64,000 nt of DNA, from IMG/VR virus record IMGVR_UViG_3300031853_000023, positions 7,254 to 71,253 of that record, one strand, 5' to 3'. The translations under genes and the position numbers were made by a program. The stretch comes from a virus. Under the pieces are notes generated by a model. It made no database searches. It was not told the DNA's origin and saw nothing but the letters and a program-made list of their open reading frames with translations. Positions 61,910 through 64,000 of the stretch are shown here, piece after piece; positions within the stretch are counted from its first letter, which is position 1; every line of letters starts with the position of its first letter.

Positions 61910-63209
61910 TTGAGTCGTTTTGAAGTTCATACTCATAGTGAATATTCAAATCTTCGCTTATTGGATAGCATAAATAAGATTCCAAAATTAATCAATAGAG
62001 CAGTAGAACTTGGTTTAAGTGGTATTACAATCACTGATCACGAATGTTTATGCGGACATCCAGAAGCAAACTTCTATGCAGAAGAAATAAATAAAGAATA
62101 TCCTGATTTTAAGGTTGCTCTTGGAAATGAAATTTATTTAACAGAGAATAGAAGTAAAGGACAAAAATATTATCACTTTATTCTCATTGCAAAAAATAAA
62201 ATGGGTTATAAAGCTCTTAGAGAGCTTTCATCTTATTCTTGGATGAATAGCTATTGGGATAGAGGTATCGAAAGAGTTCCAACAACTTATTTAGAGCTTG
62301 AAAATATTTTGGCAAAATATCCTAATAGTTTAATAGGTACAACAGCTTGTCTTGGTGGGGAATTATCTTCACATATTTTAAATTTAATCAAAGCAGAAAA
62401 GCACGGTTTAGAAGATGAAATAAGAGAAATTAAAATTTCTATTATTAATTTTGTAAAATGGTGCAAAGAAATTTTTGGTGATGATTTCTATATTGAATGT
62501 GCCCCTGGACGTTCAAGTGAACAAATTGCCGCGAATAAAAGATTAATGTCAATAGCACACGCATTTAATTGTAAAATGGTAATAGGAACAGATGCGCATT
62601 ATCTTACAAAAAAAGACAGATATGTTCATAAATCATATCTTAATTCAAAAGGCGGAGAACGAGAAGTTGATGCTTTTTATGAATATGCTTATCTTCAAAG
62701 TGAAGAAGAAATAAAAGCAAATCTTATTCCTTCTGAGTTAAACTATGATGCATTAGTTGCGGCATCCGAAGAAATTTATAATAAAATTGAAAATTATAGT
62801 TTAAGACATAATCAAACTATTCCAAAAGTTGAAGTAAAAGATTATGTAAAATATGAAGATAGAAGTTTAAAAGACTTCCCAACTTTGTACAATATGAAAA
62901 TATCCGATGATAAATATGAAAGATATTGGATAAATGCTTGTTTAAGTAAATTAAAGCAAATGAATATAGATAATGATAAATATATGCAACGACTTGAAGA
63001 AGAAGCAGATATAAAGAAAACAATTAGTGAAAAACTTGGAACTAATATGTTTAGATATCCTATTGTTCTTCAACATTATGTTGATATGTTCTGGGAGTGT
63101 GGAAGCACAGTTGGTGCGGGAAGAGGTTCTTCCTGCTCTGGTTTAAATCATTATCTTTTAGGCGTTACACAGCTTGACCCAATAAAAAGAGATTTGCCAT
63201 TCTGGAGAT
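61910..63209 (+). CDS. dnaE: DNA polymerase III alpha subunit, exon 1 (PHP domain); no TAG
   Basis: HTHSEYSNL..LDS..ITDHE..G (PHP). The terminal ..LPFWR resembles PolIII alpha ..FERFLNPER. The frame is broken 3 codons later by an intron. Confidence 0.55.
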
Positions 63210-64000
63210 TAGAACTTTAAGAAATAGTCTCCCTATACTGTGAAGTATAGTATAAAAAATTTCGTGAACTCTGATGCTCAGAGGTGTGTAAAGAACAAAT
63301 AGTTTGAGTAGGAAATGACTCATTAATCTTTATGCTAACCGGGAAGCCTTAGCAAGTAAAGTTGAAGGTAATCCAGTGCCAAGATAATAAAATATAGGTT
63401 ACTCGAATAAAAAAATAAAGTGCAACAAAGATAAGGGTAGTTGCTTAATGATAGAGAGGACCGACATAAGAACCTTGATGTGACTTAGACCTATATTATA
63501 TTATAAGGTGTAACGACTATCCGAAAGGAGTAAGGCGGAGGATGAGCTACCGTCTGAAGTGCGAAAATCTTTAAATATTTTCTACCGTTTTGGTCAAAGT
63601 GGTAGAATTCAATTAATCAAATTTTCATATATAAATGAAAGAAGAAATATGAAAGGAGATTAATTGATATGTTAATCTATAAAATAACTAATACAATAAA
63701 TAATAAAAGTTATATTGGTCAAACAATAAAAACTGCTGAAGAAAGGTGGAAAGAACATCAAGCACATGCTTTTGGTTCTCATCCGAATGATCAAAATAAA
63801 ACTTTATATAAAGCAATTAGAAAATATGGAGTTGAAAATTTTACATTTGAAGTATTGCAAGATAATATAGAGACATTTGAGCAATTAGATAAAGCAGAAA
63901 TTTATTGGATTGATTATTATAATAGTTTTGTAAAAGGATATAATGAAACATTTGGAGGTCAGCAATATCATAAAATTCTTCCAAATAAAGAAATTATAGA
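63210..64000 (+). mobile_element. Group I intron in dnaE (5' portion; runs off the window) carrying a GIY-YIG homing endonuclease
   Basis: P1 pairs GGAGAU(U) with (A)GUCUCC (63226..63232) and has a U.G wobble at U63209. The P7 5' strand CGACTATCC is at 63514. The structured, GC-richer region 63230..63600 resembles the dnaB intron core (..GAAGTGCG..). Confidence 0.45.
63669..64000 (+). CDS. Intron-encoded GIY-YIG homing endonuclease (partial; continues past the window end)
   Basis: RBS AAAGGAGA then ATG at 63669. IYKITNTINNKSYIGQT..RW..H..YN..GYN. Confidence 0.5.
   Translation, partial: MLIYKITNTINNKSYIGQTIKTAEERWKEHQAHAFGSHPNDQNKTLYKAIRKYGVENFTFEVLQDNIETFEQLDKAEIYWIDYYNSFVKGYNETFGGQQYHKILPNKEII

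Follow-up and report, generated by a model that had tools for sequence, protein, structure and literature searches.

Polymerase gene at the end of the window

The 3′ end of the window—the whole 64,000-nucleotide (nt) stretch of viral DNA analyzed here, taken from IMG/VR record IMGVR_UViG_3300031853_000023—carries on its plus strand an open reading frame (ORF) for a PHP-domain protein (61910–63220; 436 aa) and, downstream of it, a GIY-YIG endonuclease gene that runs off the window. With high confidence, we interpret this arrangement as a mobile, IA-like group I intron of 1148 nt (with helices P7.1 and P7.2) that interrupts a phage gene for the alpha subunit of DNA polymerase III (PolIII alpha) and bears the endonuclease gene. 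A preliminary description of the window had proposed such an intron, and the proposal is borne out by an in-frame continuation of the polymerase, a fold supported by covariation, and the location of the GIY-YIG gene inside that fold.

The ORF begins with a TTG codon, is preceded by a ribosome binding site (RBS; AGGAG, 61897–61901, plus strand), and contains a Pfam PHP domain (E 7e-26) along with positions 19–92 of the 260-position DNA_pol3_alpha profile. A sigma-70-type promoter-like site 5′ of the gene (TTGACA-17-TATAAT with TG; 61850–61878, plus strand) matches the consensus at 12/12 positions, is the sole perfect match within 61600–64000, and probably acts as the promoter. Among annotated phages, the best matches of the protein are PolIII-alpha-type polymerases of Enterococcus phages, SPbeta (YorL), and Geobacillus GR1, at 37–40% identity; a megablast search of annotated phages with 61800–64000 returned no match. 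The alignment to YorL and GR1 runs through ..DLPFWR, after which the window frame reads L-E-L-stop, whereas YorL and GR1 continue ..K(S/E)R..LPDID(I/L)D. The TAA stop three codons past ..FWR is thus where it had been reported. On the basis of these alignments, we assign 61910–63209 (plus strand) to a YorL-like PolIII-alpha gene as its exon 1, which covers codons 1–433 and one base of codon 434 and comprises the PHP domain and the beginning of the polymerase core. The earlier label of "dnaE" was right as to PolIII alpha and wrong as to the cellular dnaE gene, the polymerase being of the phage YorL type (42% identical to SPbeta YorL once its exons are joined).

Exon 2 and the splice junction

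An exact-protein look-up of the 436-aa product returned two metagenome contigs in ENA. Contig L004 (35.4 kb; this and similar labels denote contigs of relatives, and L004 positions are also given as window equivalents where stated) is 99.94% identical to window positions 51910–64000 (~12 kb) and reaches 4969 nt past the window end. Gene callers split the locus on L004 into products of 436, 214, and 761 aa. From L004 position 12449, 358 nt beyond the window end, a frame is open that encodes DNA_pol3_alpha profile positions 94–259, DNA_pol3_finger, and HHH_6 (Pfam). Joining U63209 (L004 11300) to L004 12449 takes out 1148 nt, equivalent to window 63210 through 64357, and yields an ORF of 3990 nt and 1329 aa with zero internal stops. 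The preliminary description had placed exon 2 beyond the window; although not visible in the window, the polymerase continuation (..YLNKERIELGDIDID..) is present on L004, in frame after removal of exactly these 1148 nt.

The intron/exon 2 border on L004 (12448/12449) reads ..GGAUAACACG|AUUUAAAU. The spliced protein junction, FWR|YLNKERIELGDIDID, aligns to YorL without gaps and is the counterpart of the FLNPER..PDIDID stretch that had been anticipated; in its longer form, DLPFWR|YLNKERIELGDIDIDLCPSKR, it matches YorL (DLPHWRHIHKSRPDLPDIDIDTEGSKR) and GR1 column for column. Overall, the joined polymerase is 42% identical to YorL and 38% identical to the GR1 polymerase in an alignment that includes GDIDID. 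The Pfam profile is broken between positions 92 and 94, and therefore nothing is missing at the junction. PHP, polymerase core, finger, and HHH_6 occur in one polypeptide only once the exons are joined, and the joined exons encode a single 1329-aa polymerase. The insertion splits codon 434 behind its first base and precedes the catalytic DIDID motif by ten codons.

Two uninterrupted relatives, L009 and L133, read ..TGGAGATATTTAAATAAAGA.. at this point (DNA ..TGGAGAT ATTTAAATAAAGA..), identical to the predicted ligated exons. Because these empty sites equal the predicted ligated sequence, both splice sites are fixed to the nucleotide. Ligated-exon RNA would accordingly read ..GGAGAU-AUUUAAAU.., with CCATTCTGGAGATATTTAAATAAAGAAAG as the expected junction sequence, and the window's own continuation (64001–64400) would be expected to contain AAGATATAGTCTGTGCCATCAGAAATGGTGGATAACACG and then ATTTAAATAAAGAAAGA.

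Structure of the intron RNA

The window holds the first 791 of the 1148 intron nt (63210–64000, plus strand), as judged from the exon junction, the structure, and identity to L004; the remainder, equivalent to 64001–64357, lies at L004 12092–12448. All elements described below are on the plus strand. Compensatory changes and pairing percentages refer to an alignment (A3) of nine same-site introns from which the endonuclease ORF was deleted. RNAalifold on this alignment recovered P1, P2, a long-range P3, P4–P6, P7.1, P7.2, P8, and P9, to which P7 was added as a pseudoknot. In the resulting fold, 96.1% of cells are in standard pairs and compensatory changes affect 45 of the 100 pairs, a result reached by 0 of 500 shuffles; when partners were slid by 1–3 columns as a control, 38–46% of cells were paired and 5–13 pairs were doubly changed. 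All core helices, P3-P4-P5-P6-P7-P3′-P8-P7′, are placed in the canonical order with the P3/P7 pseudoknot, and the group I fold is supported by covariation.

P1 (63204–63232) is formed by exon GGAGAU and intron UA (63204–63211) with the guide UAGUCUCC (63225–63232). Within it, GGAGAU (63204–63209) pairs with GUCUCC (63227–63232), and the 5′ splice site is marked by the pair U63209·G63227; from U63209 to A63226 the distance is 17 nt, in agreement with the guide arrangement and spacing first described. The TAA that ends the exon 1 frame falls within the P1 loop. Taken alone, a pairing of this length could arise by chance in DNA of 30% G+C. It is more than chance because exon and guide change together at synonymous codons among relatives (GGAGAU/GUCUCC, GGCGCU/GGUGCC, GGCGUU/GACGCC, GGAGGU/GCCUCC; L069, L061, L071, and L023 differ). 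P2 follows directly as the hairpin CUAUAC-UGUGAA-GUAUAG (63233–63250; compensatory changes in 5/7 pairs).

The 5′ strand of P3, UUUCGU (63260–63265), pairs with GCGAAA (63561–63566) in the long-range RNAalifold helix, with 100% of cells paired and one compensatory U-A to C-G change in L031, found also in L071; the helix shares its CGU-GAA context with P3 of more compact relatives. Between P3 and J3/4, where group I introns normally have just three or four linker bases, lie two additional hairpins (63269–63283, and 63286–63335 with an inner hairpin at 63304–63322) that show compensatory changes in 2/4, 4/9, and 5/5 pairs. Hairpins at this position, from ..CGU-GAAC to ..GCUAAC, were observed in 16 of 87 distinct related introns, including same-site homologues and L014, L029, L034, L045, L047, and L090; in the remaining ones, ..CGU-GAA leads straight to P4. 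J3/4 (UAA) and P4–P5 (ACCGGGAA-GCCUU...AAGGUAAU-CCAGU) occupy 63336–63383, partially match model positions 60–143 of Rfam Intron_gpI, and have 95.6% of cells paired.

P6 (GCC/GGU) and P6a span 63378–63509, with compensatory changes in 5/5 P6a pairs. The P6a arm (63384–63504) carries ~106 nt of A+T-rich sequence (28.9% G+C) that is absent from all 8 aligned relatives and folds as a long stem (z = −2.2). This extension, closed by a 16-bp stem (63384–63399/63489–63504), was seen only in the window, L004, and L005, and no further copy occurs within the window.

The 5′ strand of P7, the "R" element A-cGACUA (63513–63519), pairs with UAGUCU in AAGAUAUAGUCU at L004 12410–12421 (equivalent to 64319–64330). 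The helix is invariant in 9/9 sequences and 100% paired, and Rfam aligns the same blocks in an orthologue without an endonuclease ORF, L056. P7.1 (UCC-GAAA-GGA, 63520–63529) and P7.2 (GGCGG...CCGUC, 63534–63554; compensatory changes in 5/8 pairs) fill 63520–63554, followed by a conserved GAAGU linker and the 3′ strand of P3 (63556–63566). The 17-bp P8 joins UCUUUAAAUAUUUUCUA (63568–63584) to UAGAAAAUAUUUAAAGA (L004 12389–12405, equivalent to 64298–64314); its 3′ strand contains the stop codon of the endonuclease, and compensatory changes occur in L020, L023, and L031. In L056, the same P8 stem is closed by a 22-nt loop that keeps the 3′ end of the ORF. The last intron base, beyond the window, is G in 10/10 complete homologues (omega-G), and the last exon 1 base is U in all homologues. 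The nearest intron relatives are ~85% identical in the core.

The sequence block said to be common to this intron and the one in dnaB was located: CGACTATCC (63514–63522) and GAAGTGCG (63556–63563) both also occur at 56785–56827. The region 63230–63600, noted earlier as richer in G+C, is at 35.6%, compared with 29.5% in the window overall and 24.4% in the endonuclease ORF. A BLAST search of the window with the intron core found no paralogous whole core, the dnaB intron sharing only the module made up of R, P7.1/P7.2, and GAAGUGCG. A sensitive blastn search of annotated phages with the 5′ half of the intron returned only core motifs of 40–58 nt, most of them located in different phage genes or in regions without annotation.

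Two placements drawn from Rfam were discarded. One used UUCUUAUGC with GC-GAAAAU as P3; it was ruled out because UUUCGU/GCGAAA forms perfect pairs in every sequence, shows covariation in L031 and L071, and fits the P3 position of compact relatives, and because UUCUUAUGC itself pairs locally with strong covariation. The other, a relaxed-search fragment, put the P1 loop and guide (AAGAAAUAGUCUCC) on the J8/7-P7′ consensus and is regarded as a chance look-alike, since no intron could lie upstream of it.

A further hairpin, UUCUACCGUUUUGG-UCAA-AGUGGUAGAA (63580–63607), lies directly 3′ of the P8 5′ strand, with its first five bases common to both. It is kept with variation in ORF-containing homologues and missing from the ORF-less one; it may represent an alternative fold or serve to regulate expression of the endonuclease.

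The intron-encoded endonuclease

The first 110 of the 214 endonuclease codons are in the window (63669–64000, plus strand), in the loop of P8. As the preliminary description had it, an RBS (AGGAG, 63654–63658) precedes an ATG at 63669 and the ORF runs off the window; its full length is at L004 11760–12404. The product belongs to the GIY-YIG homing endonucleases. It matches Pfam GIY-YIG (PF01541) at 33.4–35.6 bits (35.6 for the 110 visible codons) against a cut-off of 22.6, PHROG homing endonuclease families cover residues 3–209, and the catalytic domain of I-TevI (PDB 1MK0/1LN0) is matched with E 1.5e-6. Equivalents of I-TevI Y6, Y17, R27, E75, and N90 are conserved, the 1MK0 alignment keeping IY(4), Y(15)IG, R26, E76, and N92. 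The C-terminal half has only sub-threshold matches (HTH_50, E 0.025; I-HmuI_NUMOD-like, E 0.03). Orthologues in same-site introns are 39–86% identical.

Occupied and empty sites in relatives

IMG/VR was searched with the motif ACGACTATCC N20-50 GAAGTGCG, which had been seen in both the dnaB and the polymerase spacers. The motif, with its P7.1–P7.2 module, occurs in >119 viral contigs. In thirteen of them it belongs to a homologous intron that splits the polymerase at the identical codon, and their exons are 30–68% identical to those of the window. A member of this group, L056, carries a 345-nt intron that has no endonuclease gene but retains the last ~30 nt of it. The same intron sequence as in the window is found on L004, L005, and L006, from several metagenome samples.

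Seven relatives have an uninterrupted polymerase: L007, L009, L010, L011, L013, L133, and L134, of which five are from IMG/VR and two are contigs of metagenome-assembled genomes (MAGs). The uninterrupted IMG/VR polymerases are 62–73% identical to that of the window, and one MAG contig, a 139-kb rumen contig, reaches 78.5%. The closest non-identical polymerase relative is L133 (JBGUZU010000044.1, 139.6 kb), which is binned as an Endomicrobiaceae rumen MAG. This contig looks like a phage genome of the SPbeta-like, YorL-encoding type, and the bin assignment may therefore be an artefact.

A site that is occupied or empty among close relatives with identical flanks, together with an ORF-less derivative, are signs of mobility. 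L005 is also informative: the 5′ part of its intron has just four differences from L004, the two are identical over L004 11501–12461, and from L004 12462, 14 nt into exon 2, about one third of positions differ (~70% identity; exon 2 protein 77% identical). A boundary of this kind would be expected from recombination at the intron or from co-conversion in the course of homing.

Other interruptions were observed in the polymerase genes of relatives. In L008, L012, and L056, a site 29 nt downstream, between ELG and DIDID (site B, the site described above being site A), is occupied by a distinct group I intron bearing a GIY-YIG gene of its own. L056 contains both introns (549–1390) around a 29-nt micro-exon, the site A intron being the 345-nt ORF-less form and the site B intron having 468 nt and an endonuclease remnant. 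In L061, an interruption of ~1.2 kb with a GIY-YIG-like ORF (6186–7379), near residue 838, may represent a third insertion site.

Proposed activity and alternative explanations

In the mechanism we propose, the polymerase gene would be transcribed from the sigma-70-like promoter at 61850–61878. Ribosomes on unspliced RNA would stop once they met the intron's early TAA, three codons in, and so be cleared. The RNA would then fold, free guanosine would attack after U63209 held in the P1 U·G pair, and the freed exon end would attack after the terminal G (equivalent to 64357), giving an mRNA for the 1329-aa polymerase. By analogy with the phage T4 td intron and its endonuclease I-TevI, the endonuclease would cut near TGGAGAT|ATTTAAATAAAG in the intron-free polymerase alleles of relatives infecting the same cell, and repair from the intron-bearing copy would spread the intron (homing).

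Several points weigh against the interpretation as a whole. The last 357 nt of the intron, as well as exon 2, come from a contig of another sample and not from the window, and splicing and cleavage are predicted from sequence. At the gathering score of Rfam Intron_gpI (RF00028; 50 bits), no match was found in the window, L004, or the ORF-less orthologue, nor in L008, L012, or L003; the covariance-model search suggested in the preliminary description thus leaves the intron formally outside the family as delimited by that threshold. Relaxed searches gave fragments of 23.3 and 15.6 bits in the window and of 21.3 and 14 bits in L004, and L056, aligned along the whole model, reached 46.5 bits (E 2.5e-10), just short of 50. 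We attribute the shortfall to the 800-nt insert in P8, the 106-nt P6a arm, and the hairpins after P3, which RF00028 does not model; the last two are also departures from the compact group I core. P7 and most of P3 are invariant and hence outside the reach of covariation, so that P7 is supported by its identity to the R/S consensus. None of the candidates for P10 (4–6 bp of A/U, such as AUUU/AAAU and UUUAAA/UUUAAG) is conserved across homologues.

It is very improbable that the intron is one by descent whose splicing is no longer efficient, for instance because of the P6a arm, leaving the polymerase dead or dependent on a helper. The A+T-rich arm peculiar to the window, L004, and L005 and the poor scores of the core against Rfam would fit such decay, but P1, P3, P4–P7, P8, P9, and omega-G are all intact and conform to the family consensus, and the arm extends a hairpin loop, a position tolerant of insertions. 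Both exons, moreover, are stop-free and conserved, the same sequence recurs on contigs of several metagenome samples, and a non-exhaustive look at the window brought no second polymerase to notice.

Equally little weight falls to a truly split polymerase, in which a stand-alone PHP protein and a separate C-terminal polymerase would flank a free-standing GIY-YIG gene and nothing would be spliced: gene callers do return three products on L004, and free-standing GIY-YIG genes are common in phages (one, ORF 49169–49537, lies elsewhere in the window), but the 761-aa ORF drops 134 conserved codons, GDIDID among them, that follow in frame directly on the proposed 3′ splice site, the spacer RNA adopts a fold that is conserved and co-varying, with the endonuclease gene seated within it, an orthologue keeps a 345-nt spacer devoid of that gene, and exon and guide co-vary.

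Other introns in the window

The preliminary description had listed four introns in the window, in gyrB, thyX, dnaB, and dnaE. Those in the gyrB-like, dnaB, and polymerase genes are confirmed, and thyX as a host gene found no support. The gyrB-like exon (40332–42051) is followed by a group I intron at 42052–43089 with a GIY-YIG ORF inside and a spliced junction of ..NRLKG|LGEMSPDE... Its 5′ splice site follows ..AAAGGGU, which pairs with GCCCUU, and its 3′ end reads ..AAUAACAUG|UAGGAGAG; a td-like R-P7.1-P7.2 module is found at 42956, and P9 and the 3′ end resemble those of the polymerase intron. The dnaB gene (54447–55859) is followed by an intron (at about 55860–56900) with a LAGLIDADG ORF, R at 56785, S at 56862, and a terminal G near 56900. 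The LAGLIDADG ORF, which contains TAG codons, is near the 5′ end, and the core is compact, with P3 as UAUCCCGU/GCGGGAUA and P4 as UGCUG/CAGCA.

The region assigned to thyX (50640–50815) contains an R element, CUGUAUCGACUAUCUCC (50650–50666), and an S-like AAAAAUAGUC near 50775, which suggests a further intron. No thyX similarity was found for this element with its R-like motif at 50659: 50814–51227 and 49979–50260 have no Pfam match, Thy1 included, and no tblastn similarity to ThyX of Geobacillus GR1.

Stop codon recoding

TAG appears to act as a sense codon in the apparent late genes of the window (659–11503, plus strand; 17899–30595, minus strand; 36922–39371, plus strand). With TAA and TGA as the only stops, ORFs of 1038, 1566, 968, and 3149 codons have 14, 28, 19, and 69 in-frame TAGs, respectively, and an endolysin-like ORF (36922–38514) has 4; the replication genes in 30752–64000 have none. 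A scan for a suppressor tRNA detected no tRNA gene in the window. TAG aligns with Gln in endonuclease orthologues, and code 15 is therefore suggested. In-frame TAGs are also present in the endonuclease-type ORFs that lie within the early replication module: 5 in the GIY-YIG ORF of the gyrB-like intron (42257–42946), 12 in a GIY-YIG fusion (48695–49597), 5 in an unassigned ORF (49973–50671), and 7 in the LAGLIDADG ORF of the dnaB intron (55810–56643).

The GIY-YIG ORF of the polymerase intron (L004 11760–12404) has zero recoded codons. Its orthologues have TGA at Trp (L069, L073, L084, L088) or TAG at Gln (L020, L061, L031), and sister phages therefore recode the same gene differently. The unrecoded copy here, the recoded state of other endonucleases and orthologues, and the switch in L005 to a 70%-identical allele 14 nt past the site together hint that the intron might be a recent arrival in a TAG-recoded phage, or that its endonuclease might be deliberately expressed early, a suggestion that we offer tentatively and consider rather doubtful. 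If it were true, the recoding state of intron endonucleases would be a record of intron transfer between phages with different codes, and recoding would also time homing during infection. In stop-recoded "Agate" phages of the gut, an intron endonuclease is TGA-recoded while the surrounding early genes are not (Borges et al., bioRxiv 10.1101/2021.08.26.457843). The endonucleases of the gyrB-like and dnaB introns described here are similar, with 5–7 in-frame TAGs amid early genes that have none; the endonuclease of the polymerase intron differs in its lack of a recoded codon.

Significance and comparison with known systems

For annotation, recognition of the intron restores one replicative polymerase of 1329 aa at a locus where automatic gene calling gives a "PHP protein" and a truncated "DNA polymerase III" with an endonuclease between them. 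It also adds a well-populated intron site, with at least 13 viral contigs, to phage PolIII-alpha genes. Ten codons separate this site from the catalytic aspartates and 29 nt separate it from a second intron site, in line with the rule that the targets of homing introns are the best-conserved stretches of coding DNA. A clean comparative set for intron gain and loss is also provided, with alleles that are occupied, empty, ORF-less, or doubly occupied, in phages that use three genetic codes. The element itself is a mobile element of an ordinary kind, and knowledge of how group I introns work is unchanged by the finding. GIY-YIG-bearing group I introns in phage DNA-metabolism genes are textbook material, and an endonuclease-bearing PolIII-alpha intron is already in GenBank, at another site. 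An intron at the present polymerase site was not found in annotated phage genomes (blastn) or in the literature searched.

Among the closest known systems is td/I-TevI of phage T4 (group IA2, GIY-YIG), likewise a group I intron in a phage DNA-metabolism gene, with self-splicing predicted for the present one. Both have an early in-frame stop just inside the intron, and the polymerase-intron endonuclease has the I-TevI catalytic domain with equivalents of R27, E75, and N90. In td, as in the polymerase intron, the R element ..AACGACUAUCC.. is followed by P7.1, P7.2, P3′, P8, and AGAUAUAGUC. The host gene here is PolIII alpha and not thymidylate synthase, two extra hairpins separate P3 from J3/4, and the C-terminal DNA-binding half of the endonuclease has no significant match to I-TevI. 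The td intron ORF sits in the P6 region, whereas that of the polymerase intron occupies the loop of P8 and has its end within the 3′ strand of that helix.

Mobile group I introns in conserved parts of replicative polymerases are also known from Bacillus phages SPO1 and SP82 (I-HmuI/I-HmuII) and from T7-like phages, the T7-like PolA introns having short core motifs in common with the intron described here. These differ in interrupting family A polymerases at unrelated sites and in encoding HNH endonucleases, those of SPO1 and SP82 being nicking enzymes (cited in PMC7685451, ref. 41).

In Enterococcus phages EF1 and EF5 (GenBank MF001358, "HNH homing endonuclease # Phage intron"), a polymerase of the same family (40% identity to exon 1) is in pieces, with endonuclease-bearing spacers near the same catalytic motif. 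The insertion there is ~10 codons downstream (..SRPELP|), at or beside site B (the position is approximate); the endonuclease is HNH, not GIY-YIG, and no DNA similarity to the window intron was found at that locus. The site B introns of the sister phages L008, L012, and L056 are likewise of group I, interrupt the same gene, carry a GIY-YIG ORF, and have the same kind of hairpins after GUGAAC; they are distinguished by their insertion 29 nt downstream (CUCGGU|...AAAAG|GAUAUUGAU) and by another core, with R = GUAGAGACUAA.

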